A DNA stretch of 64,000 nucleotides from an uncultured bacterium (GCA_963749445.1 CAVVMJ010000004.1:16483-80482), one strand, 5' to 3'. Shown: positions 26,808-52,947, numbered from the stretch's first letter. Program-made: numbers and translations. Notes: a model not told the origin generated them from the sequence alone.

Positions 26808-26836
26808 GCAAAATTTCGTGGGATGTGCTATAATAT
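26808..26836 (+). promoter_or_regulatory. Sigma-70-like promoter (TTGCAA, 17-nt spacer, TGCTATAAT) upstream of the 27045 gene cluster
   Basis: TTGCAAAATTTCGTGGGATGTGCTATAAT. The extended -10 TGnTATAAT also occurs at 10913, 18609, 22592 and 31204. Confidence 0.5.
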
Positions 26837-27044: not shown

Positions 27045-27521
27045 ATGAAAACTGACTGGCAGCATCATTACAAGTTTTTTCAGGCGATTGCGGCATTTTT
27101 TGCCCCGATTGTTTTGATCGGAGTCGGAGTTGGACTGACTGTTTTAGTAAGCATTATGCCAGTTCACGCGCAAACTTCAGCTTTTATTCCGAGCGGTGTG
27201 GGAGGAATAATTGCTCCCGGAGCTTGCCCGCCCGCCGGATTAGGGGATTGCGATACCTTAACTTTTACGCCTGACTGCGGGGCGGTAATCGGGATTGTCG
27301 GTCCTTACGGCAGTAATTGGGGATTATACCAATGGGATATGCCGCCGACTGAACCTCCTATAGGCCCTCCTTATGACGAATGGGACGCTTCTTACTTAAC
27401 TAATGGTTTTCCGTACACGCACGCCGGGGAATTTATGGTGGGCTATGCCATACCCAGCCTGGATCCGGAAATTTGTCCTTTGCCAATGCTCATAAGTATC
27501 GGTACCAGTTTATTTAAGTAA
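27045..27521 (+). CDS. Hypothetical Cys/Pro/Gly-rich secreted or membrane-anchored protein (first gene of the T4SS-like cluster)
   Basis: N-terminal TM/signal anchor FFAPIVLIGVGVGLTVLVSIMPVHAQT, then a Cys-containing extracellular region. No family match. Confidence 0.4.
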   Translation: MKTDWQHHYKFFQAIAAFFAPIVLIGVGVGLTVLVSIMPVHAQTSAFIPSGVGGIIAPGACPPAGLGDCDTLTFTPDCGAVIGIVGPYGSNWGLYQWDMPPTEPPIGPPYDEWDASYLTNGFPYTHAGEFMVGYAIPSLDPEICPLPMLISIGTSLFK

Positions 27522-27557
27522 GATGATTGTCCCGTAAGAAAAAATAAAAACAAAAGT

Positions 27558-28418
27558 ATGGACAGCGTAAATTTTCAAAATACTCAAACTCAATCGAGTC
27601 TCCATTTAGGCCATTTTAGTTTGGTGCTCTCGGTGGCGGTTTTGCTTTTGGGGATTTCCTGGATGAAGAATCCGCAGTTGTTTGCGGTTTTGCAATTTCA
27701 CCAAAGCGACGCGCAAACGGCGAGCGCGGACGCGCCGCGTTATTACGCTTACGTTACGCCGCCCGAAGACCAGCCCCAGCCCGCGGTGTTAGGCGCGAGC
27801 ACCAACCAGGGGCCGAGCATTATCCAGGACGACGGCACCGTGGTGCCGGTGGATATGGGCCAGGTTTTGGCCGCCAGCACCCAAGGCGTGGCGCTGTCTT
27901 TGGATGACATTAAAGTCAACCAGGTGCCGGATTCGGACGCGGACGCGCAAACATATTTTACGGCCGCGCAAAAGATTGAAAGCGGCTCCATTGGCGACGC
28001 GACGTTCGGCGCGGCTTTGACCTCGGGCGACCAGAACCAGATTAACCAACAGGCGCAAAAAATAATCGCGGTCCGCGACGCTTTGCAGCAGCTTGCCGTG
28101 CCACAAAGTTTGGTTAAACTGCAAAAATTAAAAATCATCCAATATAATTCTTCCATAAGTCTTTTGCAGAATTTTACCCAGGGCGACAAGAATTCGGATT
28201 TGGTTAACGAAGATATGCAGCAATTTTTAAAAAGCCAGCAGGATTTGGAAGCGGAAAGCGCCGTGGTGGCGCAAAAATATCCGACGCTGGATCCTGACGC
28301 GACTTTGTATGTTAATCCGGACGGCACGCCGACAAATATCCAGTCTGCCGAGGTAACGGCAAGCCAGGATAATTCTTTAACCGGTTCATCTTTAGACGAC
28401 GGCAATGCAGGCCAATAA
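27558..28418 (+). CDS. Hypothetical membrane-anchored extracellular protein (Q/A/D-rich)
   Basis: N-terminal TM HFSLVLSVAVLLLGISWM; the rest is low-complexity and coiled-coil. Confidence 0.4.
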   Translation: MDSVNFQNTQTQSSLHLGHFSLVLSVAVLLLGISWMKNPQLFAVLQFHQSDAQTASADAPRYYAYVTPPEDQPQPAVLGASTNQGPSIIQDDGTVVPVDMGQVLAASTQGVALSLDDIKVNQVPDSDADAQTYFTAAQKIESGSIGDATFGAALTSGDQNQINQQAQKIIAVRDALQQLAVPQSLVKLQKLKIIQYNSSISLLQNFTQGDKNSDLVNEDMQQFLKSQQDLEAESAVVAQKYPTLDPDATLYVNPDGTPTNIQSAEVTASQDNSLTGSSLDDGNAGQ

Positions 28419-30327
28419 GTTTCAAAAAATAGTTATCACGTTTTTAATTTTTAGCCAATTAGCATTCTGGCCGGCTTTTGCCTTGGCTTTTGTTAATACC
28501 GCCGCAGGTTCGTTAAACCCGGTGCCAATTAATGACACTGGTTCAATTGCTGCCAATAGCCTTTTTGATGGGGCATTTACTACCATAAAGACTTCTTATA
28601 CGGCTTGTACCGCTGATATAAAGGGTTTTGAGGCTACCGATAACGCCGCCTCGCTTGGTTTTTCGTTTTCTGCAATTATCGGCGGCGGGGGAGCACTAGC
28701 TGCGCAATTGCAACTAGAGGTTACAGCTTATAACAGTTATTTAAATACTCCGCTTTTGCCTCTGTGCCCAGGTATGCTTGCTTTGATGGCAACTTTGGAT
28801 AAGCTAACGGCTCCTAATACTTATACTAGCACGTTAAAACAGCAATTAGTGACTCAGATGAGATCTGACATCCAAACTTATAATGATAAACTCAAAACCG
28901 CCCAAGCTAGATATAACGTTGCCAGCCAAAGTGTTTGGAAGGCGTTGATGATTACCGTGTTAATCAACACCACCAAATCCGTGGCCGATCAGCTGGTGAA
29001 TAAGCTGGTGAATAATTATAAAATCGCCAACATCAAAGCCTACACCGATTCCTTGGCCACGCTGGCGTACGACAACCAATTTATCCGCGATAATTTTCCG
29101 GGTTCGCAGGATCAGCTGATGGCGCGGGCGATTTTGACAAATCCGATATTGCGGTCGCAAATCCAGCCGGGAATTTATACGGAGATAAATCAGAATCTGG
29201 GTTTTCAGCCGATGACCTTAAGCACCAGCGACCCGAATTATTACGCCAAGATGGCTGCCGTTGGAGCGACTAGCAACAATCCTTATTATGTGCAGACCGC
29301 TTTTGTTGTTGGCGTTGACGCGTCCCATGCTAATTCGGTGGCGCATGCCCAATTGCAGATTAGCCAGGGTAACGGTTATAAAGCGCCGGTCAATTGCGCC
29401 GGCAGTTTGTCCCAACAAAAACAGATTGATACGCAGACAAAAGCCGCCTCTGACCAGCTGGCCAACCGCCAGGCTTTATTGACTAATTTGCAGCAGGCCC
29501 AGGCGTTGGGCCAGAATGTTCCGGTCGCCGATTTGGCAAGAGCCCAAGCGGATTATAATTCGGCGCTGGCGGCCTGGAATAACGTGCCTTACACCGTCAG
29601 CGGACAAAATAGCGTCAGTAACGCCGCCGTGGGCGGCGGCAACAACACCGAAGGCACTATGGCCATAGTGATGTGCGAGGCGGTCGCTTCGCCGGCCGTT
29701 CTGGTTAACCAGGGTATTGACGCGATGTTTAAAGCCGTGGGCGCGAATATTTCACAATATAACAGCAATAACCTGCCCGGTTTCTTGAGCGCGATTGGCG
29801 GCATTGCCACGCAAATCGGTTCCAGTATGATTTTGGGCGGGATTACGGGCAATTCTTCCACAGTCAATGAAAAAATGGCCATTGGCCAGGCTATAAGCGC
29901 GACCACGGGGGCCACCGTCCAAACTATCAGCAACGCGGCCATAGCCAGCGCCGAGGGCAGCGGAGTTTTGTTTAACTCCACCCAAGGCGCGGGTAGCAGC
30001 GCGACTTTGAGCTGGCAGATTTTTACTATGAAATTGCCTACGGCCAGCTATGTGATAATTGTGAGCAGCACTAATCCCGTTGGTCCGAACCCGCGGCAGC
30101 CGCTTACCGGCAGTATGACAGTAAGCCCGACCTCCTACACCAATTACGTTTTGACTGTTTACGACGCCACGGGTAAAAGTTTAGGCACGGCCACTACATA
30201 TATCTCACCCGCCGCCACTCAACAGTCTTACAATTCCAATCCTAACGCTCCGGCCGTCGCCGGCGCCTTTACCATGGCCGCGCCTTTGGACATCCGCGGC
30301 CCGGCAGTGGCTTTGCATCCGAGATAG
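28405..30327 (+). CDS. Large hypothetical secreted protein (640 aa), Q/N/A/T-rich
   Basis: N-terminal signal-like FQKIVITFLIFSQLAFWPAFALA. No recognisable domain. Adjacent to the other secreted proteins of the cluster. Confidence 0.4.
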   Translation: MQANKFQKIVITFLIFSQLAFWPAFALAFVNTAAGSLNPVPINDTGSIAANSLFDGAFTTIKTSYTACTADIKGFEATDNAASLGFSFSAIIGGGGALAAQLQLEVTAYNSYLNTPLLPLCPGMLALMATLDKLTAPNTYTSTLKQQLVTQMRSDIQTYNDKLKTAQARYNVASQSVWKALMITVLINTTKSVADQLVNKLVNNYKIANIKAYTDSLATLAYDNQFIRDNFPGSQDQLMARAILTNPILRSQIQPGIYTEINQNLGFQPMTLSTSDPNYYAKMAAVGATSNNPYYVQTAFVVGVDASHANSVAHAQLQISQGNGYKAPVNCAGSLSQQKQIDTQTKAASDQLANRQALLTNLQQAQALGQNVPVADLARAQADYNSALAAWNNVPYTVSGQNSVSNAAVGGGNNTEGTMAIVMCEAVASPAVLVNQGIDAMFKAVGANISQYNSNNLPGFLSAIGGIATQIGSSMILGGITGNSSTVNEKMAIGQAISATTGATVQTISNAAIASAEGSGVLFNSTQGAGSSATLSWQIFTMKLPTASYVIIVSSTNPVGPNPRQPLTGSMTVSPTSYTNYVLTVYDATGKSLGTATTYISPAATQQSYNSNPNAPAVAGAFTMAAPLDIRGPAVALHPR

Positions 30328-30420
30328 TAATCGTAAGCATATTTAAATCGATAAACACTAAACCCAGAGGAAAGCCCCTGGGTTTTGAATTTTGCTTTAA
30401 ATGATGATTGATTATTTGAC

Positions 30421-30458
30421 GGCCGTCTAAAAAGCAGTCATAATGATAATATAAAGCA
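30421..30458. promoter_or_regulatory. Imperfect 38-bp palindrome (core GACGGCCGTC), ~20 bp upstream of the PaaX-like regulator; candidate operator
   Basis: ATGATTGATTATTTGACGGCCGTCTAAAAAGCAGTCAT. Same architecture as the perfect palindrome at 31027-31064. Confidence 0.55.
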
Positions 30459-30480
30459 CTAACATTGATTGAGAACAAAT

Positions 30481-31023
30481 ATGGCAAAAAGGAAATTAAC
30501 GGTAACGGCGCAAATTTTGTTATATCTATTTACCGCGGTGGATATGCTGCCGCGGCCGTTTGAATCCAAAATGGGTTATTATAAAAGATTGTTTTTCGGC
30601 AAAGTCCCTTATCGCACTTTTGCCAGCGCCTTAAACAGTTTGGAGAGGCGGGGTATTATAAAAATTTACAAGGATACATCGGGCGAGAAATTTATAAAAC
30701 TTACTCATAAGGGGCAGTTGGAAACTTTATTGCTAAAAGCCAAACAGGGCGTTAACTGTCACGGGAAGTGGGACGGCAAGTGGAGATTGGTAATATTTGA
30801 TATCCCCGAGGATGCGAGAGAGAAGCGCAATGAATTTAGAATATTGCTCAAGAAAAATAGTTTTAAAGGTTTGCAGGCCAGCGTGTTCATTAGCCCTTAT
30901 CCTTTGAACAGAGAAGCGATAACCTATTTGCGGGAAAGTAAGCTGATCCAATATATTAGGATTTTAAAAGTTGAGGAAATGGATAGTGATAAAGATTTAA
31001 AGCGGCATTTTAATTTGAGGTAA
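30481..31023 (+). CDS. PaaX-like transcriptional regulator (N-terminal winged helix plus C-terminal Cas2-like/PaaX_C fold)
   Basis: wHTH region YRTFASALNSLERRGIIKI. C-terminal W-x-LVIFDIPED...R..FR.LL.K..F..LQ.SVF, a Cas2/PaaX_C-like beta-alpha-beta motif. Confidence 0.45.
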   Translation: MAKRKLTVTAQILLYLFTAVDMLPRPFESKMGYYKRLFFGKVPYRTFASALNSLERRGIIKIYKDTSGEKFIKLTHKGQLETLLLKAKQGVNCHGKWDGKWRLVIFDIPEDAREKRNEFRILLKKNSFKGLQASVFISPYPLNREAITYLRESKLIQYIRILKVEEMDSDKDLKRHFNLR

Positions 31024-31026
31024 TAT

Positions 31027-31064
31027 ATGATTGCATTTTAGACGGCCGTCTAAAATGCAATCAT
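31027..31064. promoter_or_regulatory. Perfect 38-bp palindrome ATGATTGCATTTTAGACGGCCGTCTAAAATGCAATCAT just after the regulator stop; candidate operator/terminator
   Basis: An exact reverse-complement palindrome with the same core and flanks as the site at 30421-30458. It lies upstream of the TGGTATAAT promoter at ~31204 for the VirB6-like gene. Confidence 0.55.
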
Positions 31065-31333
31065 TAAAAATTGAACTTTGCCGGTCTGGCGGCCGAGGAA
31101 GAGCGAAAAGTATCGTAAGTTTGGCAACCTGAGGATAACTCGGGATCTTTTTGTTCGTTAAGGGCGGCCGTTTGGCCGGATTTTGTGTTTTAAATTTATT
31201 TGTGGTATAATTCGGTCATCTGGATAAGTCAAAAGGCCAATATTTGCTGAAGTTTTGGGGATGATATCGGCTTTATGGAAAATTGAGGGAGATAAGCAAA
31301 ATATAGGCGGGATTCTTAACAAATTCCACTCTT

Positions 31334-34987: not shown

Positions 34988-35003
34988 ATATAAAGAAGCA
35001 ATC

Positions 35004-36373
35004 ATGTCTAGTTTAGCTTACGTCCTAAATTTCAAAAATCTATTTTTGTTAGATGTAGAAGCTTTGGCTGACCAAAGCGTTTTAGATAAGCTATCCCAAA
35101 TAGCCAATGATACGATGTTTGAATTGGAACCGGGGACCGCGCTGGAATTTTATCAGCAGCTTGACGCAATAATCAAAGAAAATTTGCAGTACTTGCAAGA
35201 GAATCGGGATGCGTATAATCAACTTATGGTAATTTTGTGGCAGTTGTCGTGGAAGGCTTTGCCGGCCATGCCGCTTAAGCAAAGCCAAAATCTTTTGGCG
35301 AGCAGTTTGGTTGGTTCGTTAAAGCTGGGAGTGAACGTTTCGGAACGTTTAAAAAGGATAATTTACCCCCTTGAATTCGGACTGGGTCCGGACAAAGAAT
35401 TACGCCGCAGTTGGTCGTATTCCATGGAACATAACCAGGAAAATATCGGCGAGAGAGATATTTTATTGGAAAAGAAAGCGTTGCGCCAAAGTTAGGCAAC
35501 TGGCTGAAGAGCTATAATAGTGAGCAGAATTTAACAGCCGGACGTTCCAAATTCAACCAAATTAATTTTTTAGACTCCAATAAGGATGCTAATAAGCTTG
35601 ATAAGGAAGATAAAGAAGTATTAAAACAAATTTTGGAAATTTACGATTGGCTGTTATTCCCGCCGCCGGGGCCGGAGATAATTTATGATAATCAGCCGGA
35701 TGAAAGAGGGCAGACCCAAGATATCGGCCCGGCTATGAATGCGACTAGAGCCACGATGCCGAAAGAACTTTACGAGTCCAGTAGTCAGCTGCAGCCTCTA
35801 AAGACCTTAAAGCCAACGCCTCCATCGGTGCCGACGCCGGGGAATCAGCCGGCGGCGAGGAAGGTGGGGATGGAGGAGATTATGGCTGCCGCGGATCAAA
35901 CGCGGATCCCGACTGCAGCCGCGGATATACACGCGGATAGTGGAAGCAAAGAACAGGAAGCAGGAGTCAAAAAGCAGGAGTCAAGAAGTGCTCCATCCTT
36001 GGAAAAGAAGGAAAGTGAAGAGCTCGGGCCCGGGGTAAGTTTGGGTGTTGTGTTGCCTAACTATAAAAAATCGGTTCCTCCGGCGACGATTACCGCGGAA
36101 AGTTTGGCGGCGAAGATGGCAAAGGCGCGGAACGACACGGAATCTAACCCCGATAGCAGAGCCGATAAATCGGCACGCTACGGGGCAGGCGCGGAAGAAC
36201 ACGGAACGCAACCTCCGGCGACAACCGTAAATTACATCCAGCAAAAATCTGAAGCACGGTCCAAAGCCGAACAGTATCTGCAGCAGGAAATTGATCGGAA
36301 GCTGCGGGGGTTGGAGGAGAAGACGAAAAGAAATGACAAAATTGACCCTTCGACAAGCTCAGGGCAGGCATAA
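35004..36373 (+). CDS. Hypothetical protein(s) in two frames (35004..35495 and 35633..36373); possibly one frameshifted gene
   Basis: No family match. The second part is Pro/Ser/Glu-rich and low-complexity. Confidence 0.3.
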
Positions 36374-36420
36374 ATGAGCAAAAATGACAAAATGCTTTTT
36401 AAGCAGAAGTCGAATATTAA

Positions 36421-36834
36421 ATGAAAATTTTTCAATCAAAAGTTAAAAAGTTTGCCGGCACAACTTATGGAGAGCTTTTTCCCCAAGCTTTTGCGGCCTA
36501 TAAAAAATTAAAGAAAAACAGCAAACGAAAACCTTATATCCGTTCGGTTTATTTTGATACCGACAAAATATTTTTGGATTACTTCTGGAATCATCTACAT
36601 AACAAAAATAACATTCGTGATAAAGCAAGGAGGCTAAAGTTTTACGACTGCGCTTTGGATTTAATAGCTAACTCAAGAGTTGAACCTTACTCGTTTCAAA
36701 ATCCTATGACCAATAAAGAGATACTGCATCGTTTTGCCGGTTTAAGTAAGGAAGGGGAAATGTTTTATGTTCAAATTAAAGAAGATAAAAGAACCGATCA
36801 AAAACATTTTATATCGGTATTTCCAGAAACTTAA
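36421..36834 (+). CDS. Hypothetical protein in an AT-rich segment (with 36997..37281)
   Basis: 137-aa ORF with no recognisable domain. The low GC of 36380-37300 suggests foreign origin. Confidence 0.3.
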   Translation: MKIFQSKVKKFAGTTYGELFPQAFAAYKKLKKNSKRKPYIRSVYFDTDKIFLDYFWNHLHNKNNIRDKARRLKFYDCALDLIANSRVEPYSFQNPMTNKEILHRFAGLSKEGEMFYVQIKEDKRTDQKHFISVFPET

Positions 36835-37393
36835 AAGACCTTCCGCCAAGTTGTGGTTGCAGGAACTGCAAGCCACGGCCGAAAGCCTTTTGCCAGATCT
36901 TCCGCAAGTGTGGTATATGAACCACGGGCCGAAGACCTGTATATATACAGTAGCATAAATTATAAAACTGTCAAGTCAAAAATTTAGCTTAAGATTATGA
37001 GAAAAATTATCATTCATAACTGGTTAATTTTCACAGGAAAACGAGGTTTGGATATACTCGCGAATCGGGGGTTGTTTCAGCTTTTATTTTTGACGTTTCC
37101 AAAGGCCTACCTTTGGTCGCGTGGACTGGCGTTCAACCTGCGCCGCTTGTCCGACATGTCCGGCGAAATGTTAGCTTCTGCAGTTGCCTCATTCCGCCTT
37201 GGTGAACATGGGGTGATTCAGTTTATTGCACCCGCGTTTGGAACAATACCTTTTAGTATTCCCGAAAACCATCGTACTTAGCCCTTTTGCCTTTCGGATG
37301 TGCGTTACTTCTTGTTCCAGAAGTTATTGCGCCATTTCCTGCGAAAACTAACCAGTTACAATAAATAAGACGGATTAATTATAATAGTGTTAC

Positions 37394-39154
37394 ATGCAAA
37401 GCGAACATATCCAAACAATCCAAAACCTAATTAAAACTACGGCGGTTTTGACGTCCGCGGAAAAGAGCGAGTGGCTGGAATTGGTGGATTTGATGAACGA
37501 CCGGCAGCTGTTGGAATTGGAGCGGATTTTAGAAGACGCAAACAAGAATCAAGAATCAAGAATCAAGAGTCAAGAAGCAAAACTTACACAGGCGGGCGTG
37601 TCTTTGGCTCAAGTTCGGCCGGCGATTCCATCGGCGATTCCAAAATCAACCGTTCCGACCGCCAAGCCATTGCCGCTTGCCTCGCCCCAATTTTCCCAAA
37701 ATGATATTTTGACGCCGGGAAAGAAAGAACTTTCTAGCACAAGCGCGATTGTAAAATCCTCAAAAATTGGAGCGGGACCGGTTCCGCCCGCGCCAAAAAA
37801 ACTTCCGATTGCCCAGGAGCCGGGGCCCGGACCTTCCTTTAAGCATATTCTCAATTTCCCCAAAGCGGGCGGCCCGTTCGACAAAGCTCAGGGCCGCCTC
37901 GAACGAAGCCGAGATGGCGGCGGCGGTGCGACTTTTCCGCCGTCTGCGGGATCATTGCCGCTTCCGCAAGTCCGTCTGGAAAGCAAAACCATAGAGCCGA
38001 AAAAAGAGTCGCCGTTTTTGAGCAAGCTCAAGGCTATCTTTTCCGAAAAAGAATTGCCGCCCCCGCCGCAAATTCCGCCAGGCGATATTTTGATATCTGG
38101 CAAGAAAGATTTTTCCAAACCAAGCACTGTTGTGGCTTCTTCAAAAATTGGAGCAAGCGCGACTGGGCACACTGATAAATTAGCCGCGTCTAAAACATCC
38201 CCAAAGCCGTTATCGGAATACAAAAAGTCCGAAGCTAGGCCCAAGCCGTCGCCCAAGCTCGAACAACCCGCCAGCACCACCATCAATATTTTCATGAATA
38301 AAGGTGAACCGGCAAAATTTTCCGATTTAGAGCAGGTTGTCAAGGCCATACAGCGACCGTCGGAGTCTTCTCCGATTTTAGGCAAGAGCGAGCCGGCCGA
38401 GGCGGATTTATCAGCGCCAGCTCCAATCGGGGCCTCGCAGCCGCCGCAGCCAAAAATCAGTTATGAGCCCGCGGCCCATTCGGCACAGCTCAGGGCCGCC
38501 CCGAGCATGGCCGAGGGGGCGGCCGCCGCCGTGTCAACCGCGATGTCGGCTGCCAAGGCCGCTTCCGCCGTGGCCCCGAGCGCAGCCGAGGCGGAAGCGG
38601 TTAGCCCGGCTCCCACCCCGTGGAATCAGGAAGAGTCCGGTCTGTACAAGCCGAATAAAAAACCTGATTCGGGAGCCGTGGCGGCGAAAACAACGGCCAC
38701 CCAACAAGGCCTGGCGCCGGGATTAAATTTTTCCGAAGGGCCAAGCGCGGCCGCGCTGAAAAGCAGGCTAATGACCGAGCCGGGCCCGGGACCAAACAAG
38801 CAGGCATCTTCCGCAGTTTCCGCGTCGGGGAGAATTATTTTGCAGGAAAAGCCGGGAGATAATATGAAATTGGAAACCCTGAACGATGTTACGGCCCTTA
38901 AGCCCGATGATTTACAGAAACACGCCACCGGCACCCTGTTCCGCAAATGCCAAAAGCTCATTAGCCAGTACGGGCCGCACGAAGTGGTTTTTCGTTTGGA
39001 GCAAAGTCCTCTATATAAAGCTTACATCAATACCGGCGTGGCTTGGCTGAAAGAAGGGGCCAGAAAAGCCCAAGGCGTCGCCACTTTGCAGCTGCCCGGA
39101 GAAGATTTTGAACGCTTTGTGGATTTTTTGATTATGTTGCGCAGTAGAGCGTAG
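37394..39154 (+). CDS. Pro/Ala/Ser-rich repeat protein with a structured C-terminal domain; contains a tandem 9-mer repeat and two in-frame family-2 palindromic insertions
   Basis: Duplicated block DILTPGKKELSSTSAIVKSSKIGAGP / DILISGKKDFSKPSTVVASSKIGASA. Tandem CAAGAATCA x4 at 37546-37575 (NQESRIKSQE). Family-2 inserts at 37871-37920 and 38471-38520. Confidence 0.4.
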   Translation: MQSEHIQTIQNLIKTTAVLTSAEKSEWLELVDLMNDRQLLELERILEDANKNQESRIKSQEAKLTQAGVSLAQVRPAIPSAIPKSTVPTAKPLPLASPQFSQNDILTPGKKELSSTSAIVKSSKIGAGPVPPAPKKLPIAQEPGPGPSFKHILNFPKAGGPFDKAQGRLERSRDGGGGATFPPSAGSLPLPQVRLESKTIEPKKESPFLSKLKAIFSEKELPPPPQIPPGDILISGKKDFSKPSTVVASSKIGASATGHTDKLAASKTSPKPLSEYKKSEARPKPSPKLEQPASTTINIFMNKGEPAKFSDLEQVVKAIQRPSESSPILGKSEPAEADLSAPAPIGASQPPQPKISYEPAAHSAQLRAAPSMAEGAAAAVSTAMSAAKAASAVAPSAAEAEAVSPAPTPWNQEESGLYKPNKKPDSGAVAAKTTATQQGLAPGLNFSEGPSAAALKSRLMTEPGPGPNKQASSAVSASGRIILQEKPGDNMKLETLNDVTALKPDDLQKHATGTLFRKCQKLISQYGPHEVVFRLEQSPLYKAYINTGVAWLKEGARKAQGVATLQLPGEDFERFVDFLIMLRSRA

Positions 39155-39156
39155 TT

Positions 39157-39460
39157 CCGCTGATTGGTCGCTGGCCCATTCGGCTATGCTCAGGGTCACC
39201 CCGAGCGAAGTCGAGGGGTGATAGGTACGCTGATATGACGCTGAATCCGATAGTTAAAGTTGAACGAAATGTCAAAGATTGTCAAAGATTTTTTGTATGA
39301 GAAGGAATCCTTTGAGATCCGCGGAGTTCTCCTCCTGGAACAGGAGGAGTACCCCGACTTGTCGGGGGGAGGTGGTAGATTTTCCGCAGTTTCATACCGC
39401 CCCGTCCGCTTCGCGGCCACCCCGCCTATCTTAGGCGGGGAGCTCCGCGGTTCAGCGACC
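39157..39460. repeat. Intergenic composite repeat (family-2 element followed by family-1 modules)
   Basis: GATTGGTCGCTGGCCCATTCGGCTATGCTCAGGGTCACCCCGAGCGAAGTCGAGGGGTGATAGG ... TCTCCTCCTGGAACAGGAGGAGTACCCCGACTTGTCGGGGGGAGGTGGTA. The ORF 39260..39505 is only the translation of this repeat. Confidence 0.75.
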
Positions 39461-39667
39461 TATCAGCGTACCAATCCGCCTTCGCATAAAGCTTCGGTGG
39501 ACTAAGTCAGCGTTAATTCAGCGGAGCGTTTCCACTATAATTTGCCTATAAATACCTTAAATTCATACAGTTTGTGTTATAATGAACCTATATGCAACCC
39601 AGTAATACAACCTCCCATAGCGCCACTTTTCTTTGTTTGTCTATAAATTTAAAGGTTTAGTGGAAGT

Positions 39668-40267
39668 TTGCATTTTAATAGCGGTTTCAAAAAAATAAAA
39701 GTGGCGCCGACCAAACGCCTTAAAAGGCCCATAATTTGCGATTATGATGACAAAAATAACATTAACTTACAAAAATTCCTCATGCCTGCAAAAGGCGTTT
39801 GGAATGGGAGGTTGATATACTGGGTGCAATTTCCCGTACCTCAATTTACCGAAGTGGAAGATAAAATTATCGGATCGCTTACCGTTAAGCAGTTCGGGGT
39901 GATTTTTGGCGGCGGCGTGCTGATTTTTTTGGCTTTTACCTTGACCAAAAGCGTTGTTGTGCTGATTTTCGCTGCCGTCATATTCGGCCTGCCGACTTTA
40001 GGTTTGGCTTTTGCCAGGCTTAACGGGCGGCCGATGTACAACATGATCGGGAATTTCGTGGGTTTTTTGACCAGCGCCAAGGTCTTAGTGTTCCATAAGG
40101 AAGGCTCTTTGGTTTCCGATCGGGAGAGAAAAGACAAAACCCCGCCGGTTGCCGCCGCCCCAAACCCGGATGGAACAAAAGCCGTAAGCCCGAAACAAAG
40201 GCTAAGGGAGGTTAATAAGATGCTGGAACAAAACGCGCAGAAGGAAGAGGAGTTGTTCAAGAAATGA
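39668..40267 (+). CDS. PrgI/VirB3-like small two-TM protein immediately upstream of VirB4
   Basis: KIIGSLTVKQFGVIFGGGVLIFLAF matches the PrgI-family 'F.GPLTLRQF.YL..G' segment preceding two TM helices. Gene order PrgI-like then VirB4 is as in monoderm T4SS. Confidence 0.45.
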   Translation: MHFNSGFKKIKVAPTKRLKRPIICDYDDKNNINLQKFLMPAKGVWNGRLIYWVQFPVPQFTEVEDKIIGSLTVKQFGVIFGGGVLIFLAFTLTKSVVVLIFAAVIFGLPTLGLAFARLNGRPMYNMIGNFVGFLTSAKVLVFHKEGSLVSDRERKDKTPPVAAAPNPDGTKAVSPKQRLREVNKMLEQNAQKEEELFKK

Positions 40268-40350
40268 GCATTTAGCATTTAGCATTTAGCGATTAGCCAG
40301 ACATGTTTGGCTAAATGCTAACTGCTAACTGCTAAATGCTAACTGCCAGA
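40268..40350. repeat. Family-3 intergenic element (TTAGCATTTAGC-type)
   Basis: GCATTTAGCATTTAGCATTTAGCGATTAGCCAGACATGTTTGGCTAAATGCTAACTGCTAACTGCTAAATGCTAACTGCC. Confidence 0.7.
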
Positions 40351-43300
40351 ACTATGAAACTGGAAATGCAAAATAAAAATAAAGCCGCAGTCAAATCCAC
40401 GCAAAGTTTTTTGAGAATCAGCGAAATCAAGAACGACGTGGTGGTTTTGGACGACGGCACGCTGCGCGCGATTTTGTCCGTGTCCAGCACCAATTTTGAT
40501 TTAAAAAGCCAGGAAGAACAGAACGCGATTATTTATAATTTCCAACGGTTCGTGAATTCCCTGGAATTTTCCATCCAGATTCTGATGCAAAGCCGCAAAA
40601 TGGAAATCGGCAGCTATTTGGAAAAGCTTAAAAATATCGCGGAAAAGCAAACCAATGAGCTTTTGCGGGTGCAGACGTTGGAATACATAGAGTTCATTAA
40701 CCGGCTGATTGAAAACGCCAGCATTATGAATAAGAATTTTTACGTGATTGTGCCGCTGGATGAAAGCATTTTCCCACCGGCCGGCGGATTCTTTAGCAAA
40801 ATATTCGGCGGCGGCAAGGCCAAGGCGGTAAAACAGCGCATTGAAAATTTTGAGAAGCTTAAGGAAAAATTGGAAAACCGAGTGACGGCGGCTTCGGCCA
40901 ACCTGTCCAGCATCGGCCTGCAGTCCGTGCAGCTGAAAACCGAAGGCCTAATCCAGCTGTATTACAATTCTTACAATTTTGAATCCGCACCCGTGGTGGA
41001 TACCGGCAAGCTGAAGGATATGAATGTTGTTCAATAAGGTGATACCAATATACTAATGCATACGAATGATACTAATAATACGAATCCTGTATCTGATGGC
41101 TTAATTTATAAGGAATTATCGTATTTGATTAACGGAGTTTTGTATTCCACCCACAATGAATTGGGGCCATATGCAAGGGAAAAACAGTATGTTGATGTGG
41201 CGGAGAGAATATTTAAGGAAAAAAGTATTAAATGCATTAAAGGACAACGAATCGGTGATTCAGGCAATATTTTGGATTTGCTGGTGGACGATAAAGTTCT
41301 CTTAGAATTTAAGGCCAAACGGATTTTGACGAAAGAAGATTACTATCAAACCCAAAGATACTTGCAGGAGACAGGTTTAAAATTAGCGATTCTAGTTAAT
41401 TGTAGGGACAAGTATATTAAGCCCAAGCGCATAGTTAGGATTGATAATTGGAAAAATCCGCATTAGTATTATTCGTATTATTCGTATTGATTAGTATATT
41501 AGTATCTTATGAGTTTATTTAAAATCAAAACCGAAAAAGAGCTGGAAGAAAAAAAGTCCATGCTCCAGGAAGCCGAAGCCGAGCACGATTTAAGCAAAAA
41601 ATTGGGCGACGTGGAAAAAATCTACCGCGAAGGCCTGACTACGCTCAAAGGACCTAATCGCTCCGGCCAGCCTGAAATTCCAGAATTCTTATTTTGAACT
41701 CAACGGCAAATTCGCCCGCAGTTTTTTTGTGCTGGCTTATCCGCGGTTTTTATCCAGCAACTGGCTGTCATTCATCATCCAGGCCGAAGGCGCCCTGGAT
41801 TTGTCCATGTTCATTTATCCGATTGATTCGGAGACCATTTTAAAAAAACTTAAATCCAAAGTCGGGGAACTTGGCAGCCAGATGTCCATTAACCAGGAAA
41901 AGGGCATGTGCGCGACCCGATGCTGGAAACGGCCTACAAAGACGTGGAGGGCTTGCGCGACCAGCTGATGCAGGGCACGGAACGGTATTTCCGCTTTGCC
42001 CTTTATTTTACCATTTACGCCGAAGACTTAAAGGAACTGGACAAAGATTCCAGCTACGCTTGGAGAGCGCGTTTGGGGCCAAGTTGATTGTGACCAAGCG
42101 CGCGATAATGCAAACCCAGGACGGCTTTAATTCCACGCTGCCTTTGGGCAAAGACCAGCTGGCTGTGGCAACAACATGAACACCAGCCCGCTGTCCACCT
42201 GTTTTCCGTTTGTGTCCTCGGATTTAACCAGCAATGACGGGATTTTGTACGGCATCAACCGGCATAACAACAGCCTGATTCTGTTTGACAGGTTCGCTTT
42301 GGAAAACGCCAATTCCGTGGTTTTCGCCAAATCCGGCGCGGGCAAATCTTACGCGGTCAAATTGGAAGTTTTGCGCTCATTTGATGATCGGCACGGAAGT
42401 GATTATCGTGGACCCGGAAAACGAATACAAACATTTGGCCGACGCCGTGGGCGGGACTTATTTGAGCGTGAGCTTGAATTCCGACTCGCGCGATCAATCC
42501 GTTTGATTTGCCGCGGCCATTGAAGGCGAGGATAATGCCGACGTACTGCGCTCGGCCGTGGTCAATTTGTTGGGCCTGTTTATCTTTGATGCTCGGCAAA
42601 CTTAACCCGACGGAAGAAGCCTTAATGGACAAGGCCATTTGGCAGACTTACGCCAAAAAGGATATTACGGCCCAGTCGGATTTTACGACCGTGGAGTATC
42701 CGACCATGAACGATTTGGTGGAAATTTTGCACGGCATGGTGGGCGCGGAAAGTCTGGCACAGCGGCTCGAGCAAATTCACGGAAGGCACTTTTGCCGGAC
42801 TGTTTAACCAGCCCACCAACGTGGTGCTCAACAACCAGCTGGTGGTGTTTTCCATCCGCGATTTGGAAGATGAACTGCGGCCCATAGCCATGTACATGAT
42901 TTTAAATTACATTTGGAACGATTGTGCGCAGTGAGCTGAAAAAGCGCATTTTGGTGGTGGACGAAGCCTGGATTATGATGCAGCACGAGGACAGCGCGCG
43001 CTTTTTGTTCGGCATTGCCAAGCGGGCGCGCAAATATTATCTCGGCCTGACCACGATAACCCAGGACGTGGCGGATTTTATGGCGTCGCCATACGGCAAG
43101 CCGATTGTCACCAATTCTTCCATCCAATTGTTGTTAAAACAATCGCCGGCGGCCATTAACATTATCGCGGAAACTTTCTTTTTGACCGAAGGCGAAAAAT
43201 ATCTGCTTTTGGAAAGCGAAGTCGGGGAAGGCATTTTCTTTGCGGGGTTAAAACACGCGGCCATAAAAATTTACGCTTCCTACGTGGAAGACCAGATTAT

Positions 43301-43358
43301 TACCACGGACCCGAAGCAATTATTGGAGATACAAGAGAGCCAGGAAAAGCTTAGCTAA
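40336..43358 (+). CDS. VirB4/TrbE/PrgJ-family type-IV-secretion ATPase, interrupted by a 463-bp mobile cassette (41042-41504) and several +/-1 indels
   Basis: N-domain (40336..41037) with VVVLDDGTLRAILSVSSTNFDLKSQEEQ...LEFSIQILMQSR. After the cassette: FARSFFVLAYPRF, Walker A VVFAKSGAGKSYAVK, TEVIIVDPENEY, Walker B RILVVDEAWIMM, TITQDVADF. Confidence 0.7.
41042..41504. mobile_element. Small mobile cassette: ~45-bp terminal inverted repeats made of ATACTAAT/ATACGAAT units flanking a GxxExxY-family nuclease gene, inserted in virB4
   Basis: Left GATACCAATATACTAATGCATACGAATGATACTAATAATACGAAT. Reverse complement of right GATACTAATATACTAATCAATACGAATAATACGAATAATACTAAT (~40/45 identical). The ORF start codon lies inside the left TIR. 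Confidence 0.6.
41056..41466 (+). CDS. GxxExxY-family protein (PD-(D/E)XK nuclease superfamily)
   Basis: YKELSYLINGVLYSTHNELGPYAREKQYVD...LDLLVDDKVLLEFKAKRILTKEDYYQTQRYLQETGLKLAILVNC matches the GxxExxY / PDDEXK_3 pattern (G..E..Y...A.......G; DLLVE..V.ELKAV......H.AQLL.YL..TGL.LGLL.NF). Confidence 0.6.
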   Translation: MHTNDTNNTNPVSDGLIYKELSYLINGVLYSTHNELGPYAREKQYVDVAERIFKEKSIKCIKGQRIGDSGNILDLLVDDKVLLEFKAKRILTKEDYYQTQRYLQETGLKLAILVNCRDKYIKPKRIVRIDNWKNPH

Positions 43359-43359
43359 T

Positions 43360-43440
43360 AACGATTAACGATTGACGATTAACAATTAACTTCTGATTTT
43401 TGGGGTTAATCGTTAATTGTGAATTGTTAATTGTTTTTTA
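43360..43440 (+). terminator. Family-4 inverted repeat (TAATCGTTAATTG units) followed by a T-run; terminator-like, after virB4
   Basis: AACGATTAACGATTGACGATTAACAATTAAC ... GTTAATCGTTAATTGTGAATTGTTAATTGTTTTTTATTTTT. A half copy lies at 52917-52950 next to tRNA-Arg. Confidence 0.55.
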
Positions 43441-43445
43441 TTTTT

Positions 43446-46038
43446 ATGGCCGACACAGTCACAATTGACGCGGCGGGAACCGCCACCCAGCCGGCGGATT
43501 CCGGCGGAGGCAAGGATCCAAAATTTTGGTCAATCCCCGGCAGTCCCGGGGATTTGCCTGAGGTTACCGTTGGCCGAGTCTATCTTAACCACAATCGTTA
43601 TGTGCCGCCGAGGAGGCAGTTTTTTGGGATAAAAGCCGGGGACACACTTACCTTGACCGGCGATGGCCTGGATGCTTATAACCAGGCGGTGTTTCTTGAT
43701 GACAAGGCAAATGGGCGGAAAAATCAGGAGCCAGTGATAAATCAGTCTTATGGCAATAGGGTGATTGCAACTTTTACAGTGCCGGATTTGGGGGATTTTA
43801 CCGGTTTGCTTCGCTTGCGGCTCACCAGCGAGAATAAGTCGTTTACCAACCGGACGATTGATGAGCCAAAGCTGATGTATTTTGCGGAAACCGAGGAAGA
43901 AAAGAAAAACGGGTTCAATCTAAAGAAGAGGAGGCTCAAAAACAGGCGCGCCAAGCGCAGCAGACGGATATTAAAGGCCAAGAAGCTGAAAAGCCGGCGG
44001 CAGCTAAATCTCCCGCCGCCGCCTCGGCAGCTGATCAGGCAAAAAAACCGGAAGATGAAGGCGCGGATGACGGCGCTGAAGCGGGGGAAACAGAAGAAGC
44101 AGGAACAGAAATACAAGAACAACAGCGGACTATTCTGCCGGAAACTGACAAACAATCCGCGGAACTGGTCGGGGAGTATTTTGACAAGCACCCGGAGGTG
44201 ATAACGGATGCCAAAGTCAGAAGTGAGATTTTAGGAGCGCTTGGCAGCGGCGATTTGACTAAGTTGAGCGAAGAAAGTCGCGCGCAACTGAAACCCGATG
44301 GATCTTTATATCGGCATATCAGCGGCATGGCGCTGATGGGAAATCAGCAGCTGCAATCAATGGGAGTTACTGCCCAACAATCCGTGCAGTTGAGAAGGGC
44401 CATGGAAATCGTCAAAAATCAGACGGTTTCAATGGAAGGGCATGCTGAAGTAGAGGCTACGGTACAAGGCCCGAAGCCGGCGCAAACCGAAGTTAAGCAA
44501 GAAACGGAAGTCCAAGCCAAAACTACGGTCAGCGGCCAGGTTCAGGGCGGAGTCGCGGGGGAGGTAGGTGGGGAAGTTAAGGTTCAAGGCGAAACCTCGC
44601 AACAAATAAAATCTGAAACGTCCGCGCAAGCCGGGACAGAGGCGCAAATTAGCGGACAACCTCAAGTCGGAGCTTCGACATCCGCCACAGCCGAAGGGCA
44701 GGTTTCCGCCCAGGCCGGTCTGACGGCCAAAATTCAGTTGGCGGCAAAGCAGAATATGGGAGAGGTCGGGGAGTATTTGGATAAAAATCGGGACAAAATT
44801 GCCAGTAGCGATTCTGGCACCAGAGACAGAATTTTAGCGGCTTTGGCTAATGGCAGTTCTGATAATTTTAGCGATGCCGATAAAGCTGTTTTAAAGAAGA
44901 CTTTGGAGTTGCTGGGTAAGGATAATTCAGCGCCGGCGCCGGTTAGAGTAGCGGCTGATTCTTTTTTCCAACCCCAATCTGCGCCAGCGGTACCATCACC
45001 CGAATCGCAACCAGCCGCGCAGCAGCCGGCTGAACCATCCGGAAAAAGGAGCCGGAGCCGCAGGCGCCCAAGGAGCCTTTATCGTCTCAAGCAAAACAGC
45101 CTGTCGCTCCCGCGCCTGCTGCGGAACAAGCGTTATCCCAAACAAGTACCCTGGGGCTTGGTACTGTAGATGGAATAAAACCGTCACCTCCGGCTGAAAT
45201 TCCCGAAGCGGCGCGGGAAATTATTGAAAGACTCAAGAAGAAAGGCGAGGAGTTGTCTGGCGCTGCTGGATTATCTAGTGGAGGTGTTGAAGCGGAAGCG
45301 GTTTTATCGGAAGTTCCTTTAAAAACGCAGCTGCCTGGTAAATCCGGAGAACCTGGACAACAGGGGCAGCCGCCTTTGGCCCCTGGAGCCGGCGGAGAAG
45401 GACAAGCGGGCCCGCCTGCTGAAGGAGCGGAAAAAGCGCCGGAACAACCTGCACCGCCAGCGGCTGCCCCCGCGCAGCCACCTTCTCCGGGAGGCGAGGG
45501 TCTTGGCCAACAGCCGACCGCCGTCCCTGCTGCGCCGCCGGAAGCCGAACCTCCTCCGGAAGCGGCAGACGAAGCCGTACCGGAAGCCGAGGCGGCGGTG
45601 GCTGGAGCGGAAGCCGGGACTGCCGCAGGAGCCGCAGCCGCAGCGCCACCCTTGGCAGCAGCTTTGGCAATGGAAGGGATGCTCCCGCCCAGAAAAAAGT
45701 GGTGGCTGGCTTTGTTTGGCGCGTTTGCCGGGCTGATAACATTTTTTGGTTTTTTTGCCGGCTGGGGAGTAATGGTCAGGTATTGGTGGCAGGGCAGGAA
45801 GCTTGCGCCGGAAAAGGCATTATCAAGTTTCCAAAAAATTGCCACGGTAATTTTATTTTTTGTGCCGTTTGTGCTGTTGTTTGGGTTTGTTATTGGGATA
45901 ATTTACATTGGTTGTAATACCCCGATTGTCGGCACCGCGACTAATTTTACCTTAAAATCTTTGGGTTACGGCGATGTATGTAAATCTTTAAATAGCCTGA
46001 CAAGCCCGGGCGTAAATTCCGGCAGCGTCGGGCCGTGA
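43446..46038 (+). CDS. Large low-complexity acidic protein with an N-terminal Ig-like domain and a C-terminal 3-TM anchor, read in three frames (indels near 43905 and 45040)
   Basis: N-terminus MADTVTIDAAG...VTVGRVYLNH...TLTLTGDGLD (beta-sandwich-like). E/Q/A/P-rich middle. C-terminal TM region KKWWLALFGAFAGLITFFGFFAGWGV...FVPFVLLFGFVIGIIYI. Confidence 0.4.
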
Positions 46039-46254
46039 CATTTGCGTGTTTAATTTTTTTGATGGCTTGATGGGAATCTTCTTGCTGATAGTATGGTTTG
46101 CTGTGATTATCGCGCCACCGATAAATATCGGCTGGCGGTAATTCCGCCCCGAAGATTCCCACAAATCCGGAAATCGCAATTTCTTTTGCGTCTTGACAAA
46201 ATTATGATATAATATAAACGAATAAAATTATTATTTATTTTTTGAAACAAAAAT

Positions 46255-47406
46255 ATGAATAAAAAAGCCATTGCCATTTTGGGTGCGATTTTTCTCTTGA
46301 TTGTGGGGACTTTGGGTTTTTTGATTTATGCCAAATACGGCGGTAAAAAAACTACTCCGGCGCCAGTCGCGGTTATTCCGGCTTCAACGTCAACTCCGGC
46401 AACCGCGTCCAGTACCCCGCCGGTTGCCACTCCTCCGCCGAACCAGCAGTTTACTAAGCTTTTGTCCAGCCAGGTGGTTTCCCCGATCCTGTTTTATAAC
46501 GGCCAGGGCGTGTCTTATTTTGATCCCAGCGGGCAGCTTTACCAGGCGGCCTTGCAGTCCGGCGGCGGTGTGTCCGCTCCCCAGTTTGCCAATCCCCAGG
46601 CTTTAAACGTTCAGACAAAATCCGACATCAGCGAAATCCTGTGGCCGCCGGCTGGCGATAATTTTATAGCGGAGTCCGATAGCGGCAGCCAAAGAGTCTG
46701 GAGTTTTTACAACAGCCAAACCCGCAGCTATACCGATTTGCCGCCGCAAGTGGAAGCTTTTGACTGGCTGCCCTCTGGCCAGCAGATTTATTACATTTGG
46801 CTGGACAGCGGTAAGGCCGCGCTCAATATTGGCGACGGCGACACCAACAATTGGAAGTACATTGCCGATATGTGGGAGCAGGATGACGCTTTGAGCGTCT
46901 CTCCGGACGGACGGAATATTTTGTATTACGAACGCAATACCGCCACTTCCACCAACCCGATTAACCTGGTCACCCCCGACGGAAAAATCTGGAAAACATT
47001 GATTTCCACGGGCATAAATTACGGTGTGTTGTGGAGCCCGGACAGCCAAAAGTTTTTGTTCGGCAAAAAAGATTCCACCGGCAGTTTTTACCAGTTGTGG
47101 TATTACAATTTGTTGACCGGGCAGGTCAGCCCGTTGTATCTTAATACCACGGTCAACAAAGTAGTGTGGGGCAAAGACAGCCAAACGATTTACGCGGCCG
47201 TCCCGCTCAGCGGGATTGCCGGCAGCGGAAATTTGACCACGGACAGTTTTTATAAATATAACACCCAAACCGGCGACAAGCAGCAGTACGATCCGGGCAG
47301 CACTGCAATTGACGGGGAAAACCTGTTTTTAAACAGCGACGGATCCGGCCTGTTTTTCAAGAACGCGCAGGATGGGGGGTTGTACGATCTGAATTTGAAC
47401 CAATAA
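46255..47406 (+). CDS. Secreted or membrane-anchored TolB-like beta-propeller (PD40 repeat) protein
   Basis: N-terminal TM AIAILGAIFLLIVGTLGFLIY, a Pro/Thr linker, then PD40-like repeats (SPDGRNILYYERN; LWSPDSQKFLFGKKD; VVWGKDSQTIYAAV). Confidence 0.5.
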   Translation: MNKKAIAILGAIFLLIVGTLGFLIYAKYGGKKTTPAPVAVIPASTSTPATASSTPPVATPPPNQQFTKLLSSQVVSPILFYNGQGVSYFDPSGQLYQAALQSGGGVSAPQFANPQALNVQTKSDISEILWPPAGDNFIAESDSGSQRVWSFYNSQTRSYTDLPPQVEAFDWLPSGQQIYYIWLDSGKAALNIGDGDTNNWKYIADMWEQDDALSVSPDGRNILYYERNTATSTNPINLVTPDGKIWKTLISTGINYGVLWSPDSQKFLFGKKDSTGSFYQLWYYNLLTGQVSPLYLNTTVNKVVWGKDSQTIYAAVPLSGIAGSGNLTTDSFYKYNTQTGDKQQYDPGSTAIDGENLFLNSDGSGLFFKNAQDGGLYDLNLNQ

Positions 47407-47480
47407 AAGCGTTTAGCAGATAGCATTTAGCGTTTAGCCAGACAGTTTTGCGTGGCTAAGTGCTAATTGCTATATGCTAA
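47407..47480. repeat. Family-3 intergenic element
   Basis: AGCGTTTAGCAGATAGCATTTAGCGTTTAGCCAGACAGTTTTGCGTGGCTAAGTGCTAATTGCTATATGCTAACAGC. Confidence 0.7.
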
Positions 47481-47490
47481 CAGCTTTTTT

Positions 47491-52916: not shown

Positions 52917-52947
52917 GGGTTAATCGTTAATCGTGAATTGTTAATTG

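Follow-up and report, generated by a model that had tools for sequence, protein, structure and literature searches.

A probable chromosomal type IV secretion locus of the Doudnabacteria lineage, with an extended VirB6-like channel protein and lineage-specific partners

What kind of machine is encoded where VirB4- and VirB6-like genes stand together and no relaxase accompanies them? The question is raised by positions 27045-47406 of a 64,000-nucleotide stretch of DNA from an uncultured bacterium (GCA_963749445.1, CAVVMJ010000004.1:16483-80482), hereafter the window, in which an earlier note made from the sequence had proposed an uncharacterised cell-surface or contact system resembling a type IV secretion system (T4SS). 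Every sizeable open reading frame (ORF) of this cluster lies on the + strand, at a coding density of ~89%. We conclude with good confidence that the region is a vertically inherited chromosomal T4SS locus of a member of the Patescibacteria, of the Doudnabacteria/ABY1 lineage, that its VirB4 falls in the Patescibacteria clade derived from monoderm MPF-FATA systems, and that the machinery can be presumed intact. Conservation defines the core as an extended VirB6-like channel protein, PrgI/VirB3, TrsD (the VirB4 N-terminal domain as a separate polypeptide) and the VirB4 ATPase. Around this core lie lineage-specific partners, namely surface proteins of 286 and 640 amino acids (aa), cytoplasmic proteins of 452 and 586 aa, a membrane-anchored protein in the PrgK position and a TolB-like propeller (Table 1). 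The order and strand of the genes in the earlier inventory were correct, and several of its listed genes proved not to be intact ORFs.

The core was delineated by comparison across species. A profile of the VirB6 family, scanned against one genome per species, yielded 80 related loci, mostly titled Candidatus (Ca.) Doudnabacteria; a scan of genomes with the single VirB6 sequence had found no relative, and it was the alignment-based scan that succeeded. Counts out of 51 or 53 refer to those related loci that have enough DNA on the relevant side. Two relatives, L001 (a 949-kb contig of a Ca. Doudnabacteria metagenome-assembled genome) and L002 (GCA_023484515.1), served as references for protein-to-DNA and DNA comparison. 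The order VirB6-like, PrgI, TrsD-like, VirB4 is kept in 51 of 51 loci. Homologues of the cluster proteins are nearly all from Ca. Doudnabacteria or Patescibacteria.

The surroundings of the cluster are equally stable. KsgA lies upstream in 53/53 loci, UvrD in 49/53 and DUF192 in 48/53, and the rest of the window is housekeeping in character (tmRNA, SmpB, ArgRS, IleRS, RecO, RadA, RecG, ComF-like, ClpB/C and RecX). GC content is 0.477 inside the cluster and 0.473 outside it. The window has 85 non-overlapping ORFs of 70 aa or more; we scanned ~70 of them, and none matched a relaxase, a type IV coupling protein (T4CP) or an integrase; no integrase was found at the cluster borders either. Because the housekeeping flanks are conserved, the GC content is equal and no relaxase, coupling protein or integrase was found, the locus is a chromosomal system passed on vertically rather than a mobile element. 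The competing explanation places the cluster in an integrated conjugative or mobilisable element, with relaxase and coupling protein encoded beyond the window; it can point to a VirB4 of the CD1110/MPF-FATA conjugative type, to IS1595 and IS200-like transposase genes in the window and to small mobile-looking ORFs inside the cluster. It is hardly credible, given that the place between ksgA/uvrD and radA is constant in dozens of species, that the GC content does not differ from that of the flanks and that the scanned ORFs of the 64 kb hold no integrase or relaxase match. The earlier description of a minimal VirB4/VirB6 T4SS-like system of an ultrasmall bacterium, as opposed to a conjugative element, is thus upheld by homologues, synteny, GC content and the absence of relaxase and T4CP from the 64 kb. 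Its statement that relaxase, VirD4 and pilin are missing also agrees with the scan, which gave zero Pfam matches to any of them. For a VirB2-like pilin there was in addition no small two-transmembrane ORF within 27-47.4 kb, a negative that very divergent pilins could escape.

The 1217-aa VirB6/TrbL-like protein crosses the membrane with ~7 transmembrane (TM) segments between residues 306 and 581. Its polytopic nature and its large added domain had been recognised correctly in the earlier note; the TrbL match of the protein itself lies below the cut-off. The family to which it belongs numbers 139 homologues of ~900-1400 aa, and those that are named are nearly all from Patescibacteria or Ca. Doudnabacteria. 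PF19590 (TrbL_3) or PF04610 (TrbL) annotations are frequent among them, one carries the name 'type IV secretion system protein', and of 40 members sampled 17 hit TrbL with E <= 1e-3. Neither sequence nor profile searches with the family yielded a meaningful match among PDB sequences. The ~600-aa C-terminal domain, predicted to be cytoplasmic, is confidently folded in the model and known in only 97 cluster representatives, and it showed no sequence or fold similarity to solved structures.

PrgI has a PF12666 score above the cut-off and two TM segments as the earlier note had it, and it is present in 51/51 loci. The L001 protein aligns from 39824 onward, and the true start probably lies near 39782-39824. 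The 233-aa ORF that follows matches the N-terminal part of NCBIfam VirB4_plasma (E 4e-8) and TrsD (E 9e-6), both under their cut-offs. Its orthologues in L001 and L002 (233-246 aa, 74% identity to the window protein) carry a precomputed PF26593 TraC-like annotation and precede a 614-617-aa ATPase as a separate gene, and the TrsD-like gene adjoins virB4 in 51/51 loci. As in these relatives, VirB4 is encoded here in two pieces, the TrsD-like protein for the N-domain and an ATPase of 614 aa.

The ATPase itself, once repaired as described below, is 85-93% identical in amino acids to Patescibacteria VirB4 proteins of 614-615 aa (among the best 120 matches listed). With the NCBIfam model "VirB4-like conjugal transfer ATPase, CD1110 family" (cut-off 325) the L001 orthologue reaches 356.9 bits. 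Among solved structures the C-terminal domain of Thermoanaerobacter VirB4 is nearest (4AG5, E 1e-46), and the closest plasmid genes, from Streptomyces, Priestia, Pontibacillus, Bacillus and Clostridium, show 29-37% identity. Across the related loci the median best-segment identity is ~77% for VirB4 (with the L001 orthologue as query), ~60% for UvrD and ~43% for VirB6; VirB4 is unusually conserved.

Several genes of the cluster are broken in the window. The VirB4 ATPase named in the earlier note is present, though not as one intact ORF: the stretch consists of the TrsD-like ORF, a PD-(D/E)XK ORF and an ATPase body that matches the 614-617-aa protein through alternating frames. DNA alignment with L001 and L002 resolves the body into 10 indel events, seven insertions and three deletions, at 41646, 41907, 42054-5, 42168, 42380, 42492, 42512, 42587, 42764 and 42921. 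The 163-aa and 246-aa ORFs, counted earlier among four hypothetical proteins, are one gene with a frameshift near 35470; the Pro-rich 586-aa member of that group is a sound ORF. The ~860-aa acidic protein, whose composition and C-terminal 3-TM anchor were confirmed, is likewise not a single ORF but three (43431-44201, 256 aa; 44198-45169, 323 aa; 45253-46038, 261 aa), with frameshifts near 43.88 kb and 45.03 kb.

Repaired VirB4 is 88-89% identical to its counterparts in L001 and L002 and contains no in-frame stop. Its lineage-specific synonymous to nonsynonymous changes number 59:10, compared with 98:17 and 84:14 in the intact relatives, indicating that the repaired gene is under no relaxed selection. 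Breaks of the same sort affect housekeeping genes: isoleucyl-tRNA synthetase (14582-17559) is in five ORFs, whose pieces are collinear on solved IleRS with out-of-frame gaps between them, ClpB/C (59158-61740) is in three and alanine racemase (2423-3825) in two. Because the repaired VirB4 shows no relaxed selection and the essential IleRS as well as ClpB/C are broken likewise, the indels are most likely assembly consensus errors confined to highly conserved genes, and the system is presumed intact. Programmed frameshifting was rejected, since the indels are of both signs, their contexts are not slippery, and IleRS and ClpB are affected too. An alternative genetic code was rejected because long intact ORFs elsewhere fit the standard code.

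If the frameshifts were instead real, the ATPase and two neighbouring genes would be pseudogenes in a locus that is being lost. The number of events speaks for this: VirB4 alone has 10 within 1.3 kb, the ~860-aa gene adds two and the 452-aa homologue one. So does the general accuracy of the assembly, as two independent short contigs of the same organism in Logan agree fully with the window elsewhere: L003 (28.05-31.06 kb) is 100% identical over 3005 bases, and L084 (~45.7-49.0 kb) encodes an identical 383-aa protein. We nevertheless consider decay of the locus quite improbable, as the ratio of changes in the repaired VirB4 equals that of intact relatives, VirB4 is present in all relatives and the essential IleRS is itself broken several times. 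The apparent VirB4 'pseudogene' is better taken as a caution about artefacts in conserved genes.

Certain observations weigh against this account of the locus. Most of the VirB4 indels lie outside homopolymers and are not simple homopolymer errors, which also counts in favour of real frameshifts. The public data searched held no intact VirB4 of the source organism, the best protein match being 93% and from another run, and exact look-ups of the VirB6-like protein, TrsD (with two starts), the PD-(D/E)XK protein and the VirB4 fragment returned no record. The 1217-aa protein scores only 17.5 bits with TrbL (E 0.0036; Pfam cut-off 25.9), and it is the wider family that carries its assignment to VirB6. 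Within the cluster we recognised neither a VirB8-like nor a VirB2-like nor a VirB1-domain protein. Finally, the 158-, 286- and 640-aa genes may be mere conserved neighbours of the T4SS, UvrD and KsgA being equally syntenic.

Table 1 Features of the cluster and its immediate surroundings, with positions counted from the first nucleotide of the window
Feature	Position	Strand	Remarks
LysM-CHAP peptidoglycan hydrolase	20863-22065	-	CHAP E 4.6e-19, LysM E 1.8e-12
Promoter-like site	26806-26834	+	TTGCAA-17-TGnTATAAT, 10/12 matches; in the divergent spacer before the 158-aa gene
Small secreted Cys/Pro-rich protein, 158 aa	27045-27521	+	N-terminal hydrophobic segment; no family match
N-terminally anchored protein of unknown family, 286 aa	27558-28418	+	57% identity to L001 homologue
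Secreted protein, 640 aa	28405-30327	+	N-terminal hydrophobic segment; AF2 model
PaaX-like winged helix-turn-helix/Cas2-like cassette	30401-31064	+	Gene 30469-31023 (184 aa), PaaX_M E 3e-20
Extended VirB6/TrbL-like channel protein, 1217 aa	31334-34987	+	N-terminal extracellular domain, ~7 TM segments, ~600-aa cytoplasmic C-terminal domain
Cytoplasmic protein of unknown family, homologue of the 452-aa L001 protein	35004-36373	+	tblastn matches in two frames
137-aa ORF, variable insert	36421-36834	+	In only 2/80 related loci (L013, L024)
Pro-rich protein, 586 aa	37394-39154	+	N- and C-terminal ends conserved with L001 and L002
PrgI/VirB3-like two-TM protein	39668-40267	+	PF12666 34.6 bits, cut-off 27; 2 TM segments
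TrsD-like protein, 233 aa (VirB4 N-terminal domain as its own gene)	40336-41037	+	Weak VirB4_plasma/TrsD matches; orthologues
PD-(D/E)XK cassette in the TrsD-VirB4 spacer	41041-41506	+	ORF 41056-41466 (136 aa), PDDEXK_3 (PF13366) E 4e-14
VirB4 ATPase body, 614 aa when repaired	41509-43358	+	Walker A GAGKS, Walker B VVDEAW; 10 indel events
~860-aa acidic low-complexity protein with C-terminal 3-TM anchor	43431-46038	+	Three ORFs; prgK position of pCF10
N-terminally anchored PD40/TolB-like beta-propeller protein, 383 aa	46255-47406	+	PD40 23.8 bits, cut-off 20.9; TolB E 8e-5
RadA, conserved downstream neighbour	47467-48813	+	Context gene only

The cluster opens with three consecutive proteins that the earlier note had described as secreted or anchored and of no known family. 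Each indeed has a single N-terminal hydrophobic segment, and none of the three ORFs gave a Pfam or NCBIfam match. The 158-aa protein had zero tblastn hits in the 80 related loci and resembles a 141-aa protein of L001 at motif level only; it is a fast-evolving positional counterpart of that protein. The 286-aa gene is a conserved accessory, found in 24 of the 53 loci. The 640-aa protein is more widespread (43/53 loci), and none of its 51 homologues carries a Pfam annotation. An AlphaFold2 (AF2) model of it (mean pLDDT 68.7) shows a long helical ectodomain followed by a Gly-rich/hydrophobic stretch of low confidence; the C-terminal part forms a beta-sandwich of fibronectin type III/Ig-like appearance, and the beta-sandwich alone matches PDB folds, weakly.

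On the cytoplasmic side, homologues of the 452-aa family were found in 22 loci and a homologue of the 586-aa protein in 45/51. The middle of the 586-aa ORF contains two copies of a GC-rich repeat element (family D1), at 37864 and 38466. When 68 members of the 286-, 452- and 586-aa families were scanned one by one and the results pooled, no Pfam match recurred. The partner families lack a Pfam match at the threshold used, as the earlier note had supposed, and this holds for five conserved partner proteins.

The gene directly after VirB4 belongs to a family of variable length (314-1124 aa), and the C-terminus of the ~860-aa window protein matches an 888-aa protein of L001. Some relatives carry wall-degrading domains here, a C-terminal SLT in L046 (17951-19780) and L053 (18318-20552) and SLT_3 in L023 (9039-12413), and a few others have Peptidase_M15_3 or PT-TG pre-toxin domains, the latter in 2 of 29 positional homologues. 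The PT-TG domains hint at polymorphic-toxin-like cargo or partners. The window and L001 proteins contain no recognisable enzymatic domain. The LysM-CHAP hydrolase, which the earlier note had placed upstream of the cluster and which was found there, has a homologue at the equivalent relative position in 37 related loci. It is a candidate VirB1-type wall-opening enzyme and may supply this activity in place of the PrgK-position protein. At the other end, the TolB-like propeller identification was borne out by a PD40 score above the cut-off, and an N-terminal anchor was found. In 20 loci this 383-aa gene stands between the T4SS genes and radA, with RadA then following in 15 loci.

A sigma-70 promoter had also been claimed at the head of the cluster. 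A good site exists there, and it is only suggestive, as promoter-like sites in the region number 32 against a shuffled expectation of 26.3 (standard deviation 4.9) and are not above chance. The PaaX-like gene (30416-30444) and VirB6 (TGGTATAAT at 31203-31211) also have promoter-like sites ahead of them, and terminator-like hairpins lie at 31128-31178. Because of these internal promoter-like and terminator-like sites the cluster is probably not one transcription unit; the reading as a single operon is unsupported, the sites in question standing around the PaaX-like gene. Rfam found no RNA family within the cluster.

How might such a machine work? In monoderm T4SSs a VirB4 hexamer is docked via VirB3 on the VirB6 channel, and a wall hydrolase assists assembly. 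By analogy, VirB4 hexamers would dock via TrsD and PrgI on the VirB6 channel and drive a macromolecule through the one membrane and the thin wall where the cell touches its host; the surface proteins would mediate contact or make an outer conduit. The cytoplasmic domain of VirB6, along with the 452-aa and 586-aa proteins, could take over the coupling protein's part in docking the substrate, and we offer these substitute docking parts as speculation. Classical conjugation is unlikely because there is neither relaxase nor T4CP.

One possibility, which we hold tentatively, is protein export: effectors, toxins or wall-degrading enzymes would be delivered into or onto a host bacterium to obtain resources from it, and the 640-, 286- and 158-aa proteins and the PrgK-position protein would be surface parts or cargo. 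Candidatus Southlakia epibionticum, whose T4SS is essential for epibiotic growth, also lacks a coupling protein and a relaxase, and this lack led Wang et al. (2023) to favour protein export or another role (PMC10633639). The SLT, SLT_3, Peptidase_M15_3 and PT-TG domains of post-VirB4 proteins in some species and the rapid evolution of the small secreted protein with which the cluster opens point the same way. Protein export is harder to reconcile with the window proteins themselves, in which no effector or toxin domain is recognisable. The 158-, 286- and 640-aa proteins have Sec-type N-termini and would not need the T4SS for exit, and PT-TG is confined to just 2 of the 29 positional homologues.

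A second proposal, which we regard as doubtful, is that the machine imports or exchanges DNA in the manner of competence or of the Ced and ComB systems, acting with RadA, RecG, ComF and a UvrD-type helicase and taking host DNA for recombination or as a source of nucleotides. The neighbourhood gives it some substance. In the window radA comes directly after the cluster and shares its strand, as it does in 15 related loci, and recG (50635-52839), a ComF-type gene (57475-58251), recO, recX and the UvrD helicase all lie in the window. For class ABY1, comF, recG and radA are reported at the T4SS locus, with KsgA as a frequent neighbour (PMC12102498), and VirB4 has its ancestry among DNA-conjugation systems. 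However, KsgA and UvrD are equally syntenic, so that the adjacency of recombination genes may reflect the conserved order of a small genome, and the cluster has no recognisable relaxase, T4CP or DNA-binding component. With the CedB model the score is 41 bits against a cut-off of 700. Mutation of comEC had no effect on viability in S. epibionticum, and ComEC-dependent uptake thus does not explain why the T4SS is essential there (PMC12857230). A bolder combination, in which the Doudnabacteria/ABY1 T4SS has replaced the coupling protein by a platform of the VirB6 ~600-aa domain and the 452-aa and 586-aa proteins and works with RadA, RecG and ComF as a host-tapping importer of DNA or other macromolecules, is in our view unlikely.

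Beside the core, the cluster has received inserts that differ between species. The PaaX-like regulator listed in the earlier note is a real ORF with a PaaX_M domain, but it is a variable insert and not a dedicated part of the system, being present in only 10/53 loci and bounded by palindromes. Two ~38-bp palindromes with a GACGGCCGTC core flank the gene, at 30401-30444 and 31027-31064, and the upstream one overlaps the promoter-like site before the gene; L002 has an NTase/HEPN pair at the equivalent spot. In L024, L043 and L006 the PaaX-like gene is flanked by palindrome pairs that are genome-specific and mutually matching, and L047 has two copies downstream. Long perfect palindromes with CGGCCG-type cores accompany PaaX-like genes in the window, L024, L043, L006, L047, L040 and L072, with arms that differ between genomes. 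Such flanking palindromes could serve as paired operators or mark the termini of a small mobile cassette.

The PD-(D/E)XK ORF, with a PF13366 domain (the GxxExxY type), lies between 45-nt inverted repeats (41041-41085 and 41462-41506) that are 87% complementary. A homologous ORF occupies the same spot in L030, L041 and L045. The length of the TrsD-VirB4 spacer is bimodal across species, either 6-130 nt or ~435-507 nt, and the spacer is a recurrent landing site of a ~0.45-kb ORF (L010, L012, L013, L021, L026, L028, L030, L041, L045 and L048). L001 and L002 carry GIY-YIG and 23S-rRNA intervening-sequence-protein (IVP) ORFs between prgI and trsD, and relatives have GIY-YIG, 23S-rRNA-IVP or HEPN/NTase ORFs in other spacers of the cluster. 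A hairpin at 61856-61938 is of the same hexamer type as the PD-(D/E)XK inverted repeat and holds no ORF.

Repeats are also spread through the window. GC-rich double-hairpin elements, which we take to resemble Rickettsia palindromic elements, occur within ORFs, where they are apparently read through in frame (ksgA 25381-25498; the 586-aa ORF 37864-37924 and 38466-38526; ileS 16162-16336; recG 50911-51032; the ComF-like gene 57615-57673), and further copies lie at 12361-12481, 12850-12899 and 39157-39377, the family being both intergenic and intragenic. The KsgA proteins of the window, L001 and L002 each have a different insert in the same loop. Intergenic hairpins of short tandem units (TTAGCA-type, TAATTG-type) stand at gene ends (24962-25004, 40260-40346, 47408-47450; 43403-43435, 52917-52949) and may be terminators or RNA-processing signals. 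On the - strand the window further carries a 23S-rRNA-intervening-sequence-protein ORF (8415-8795), an IS1595-family transposase (49666-50460) and a weak IS200/Y1-transposase-like ORF (62517-63008), whose product could mobilise the palindromic repeats. A gene at 53817-53903 (-) was called tRNA-Sec by Rfam (50.3 bits, threshold 47) and tRNA-Ser(tga) by ARAGORN, and is probably a long-arm tRNA-Ser.

The locus matters beyond this genome. Patescibacteria make up a large and mostly uncultured share of bacterial diversity, and with theirs it was shown for the first time, in S. epibionticum, that the bearer of a T4SS cannot grow without it. The window is a clean Doudnabacteria example in which a conserved core can be separated from variable inserts. 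The five partner families lacking a Pfam match and the cytoplasmic domain of the extended VirB6, confidently folded and lacking structural relatives, would be suitable targets for complex modelling, cryo-electron tomography and pull-downs.

Several known systems share features with the locus. Archaeal Ced and Helicobacter ComB likewise combine a VirB4-like ATPase and a VirB6-like protein with an association to recombination or competence genes, and lack relaxase and T4CP; the window differs in that CedB scores 41.4 bits against the cut-off of 700 and no CedA-like or ComB-like parts were identified. The extended VirB6 paralogues of Rickettsiales share with the window protein a polytopic core to which large hydrophilic domains are added. 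A 2025 review, which lists the Patescibacteria T4SS, describes these domains of 'extended VirB6' as not understood (PMC12857230). The window protein is set apart by a C-terminal addition unmatched in solved structures, by its monoderm lineage and by its single copy.

A further comparison is with the monoderm MPF-FATA systems (pCF10 PrgH-PrgL, the CD1110 family of CTn2 and the Trs system of pGO1), in which VirB6 (PrgH), VirB3 (PrgI) and VirB4 (PrgJ) precede a membrane-anchored protein at the place of PrgK, a CHAP/LysM hydrolase is found nearby and, in pGO1, a TrsD-like protein occurs as in the window. A further point in common is the 29-37% identity of VirB4 to genes of Bacillota and Actinomycetota plasmids. 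The differences lie in the very strong conservation of VirB4 across species and in a PrgK-position protein devoid of a hydrolase domain. Relaxase, T4CP, a PrgL/VirB8-like protein and a PrgB-type adhesin were not detected, and the cluster is not on a mobile element.

The closest counterpart is the T4SS clade of the Patescibacteria. Quinonero-Coronel et al. (2025; PMC12102498) report VirB4 in ~80% of Patescibacteria genomes, in a clade nested in MPF-FATA, with TrsD as the commonest associated component, PrgI/VirB3 and VirB6 homologues near virB4, T4CP mostly encoded far from virB4 and relaxases rare. Differences from the window remain. VirB2-like pilin genes close to virB4 are frequent in the clade though not universal; arrays of them are essential in S. 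epibionticum, and none was recognised near virB4 here, and the ~600-aa cytoplasmic domain of VirB6 distinguishes the window protein. The accessory proteins of 286, 640, 452, 586, ~860 and 383 aa are lineage-specific and were not found named in the portions of the two Patescibacteria T4SS descriptions used here (PMC12102498; PMC10633639). The described systems, including SEML1_0006-0019 of Ca. Southlakia epibionticum (PMC10633639), agree with the window in being chromosomal, in an MPF-FATA-derived VirB4 with an adjacent separate TrsD, in PrgI/VirB3 and VirB6, in the absence of a nearby relaxase or T4CP and in the ABY1-type radA/recG/comF/ksgA neighbourhood. The word 'uncharacterised' in the earlier note therefore does not hold for the kind of system, since the clade, the separate TrsD, the absence of relaxase and the ABY1 neighbourhood with radA, recG and comF have been published (PMC12102498; PMC10633639; PMC12857230), and the window is a further Doudnabacteria example of a kind already described.

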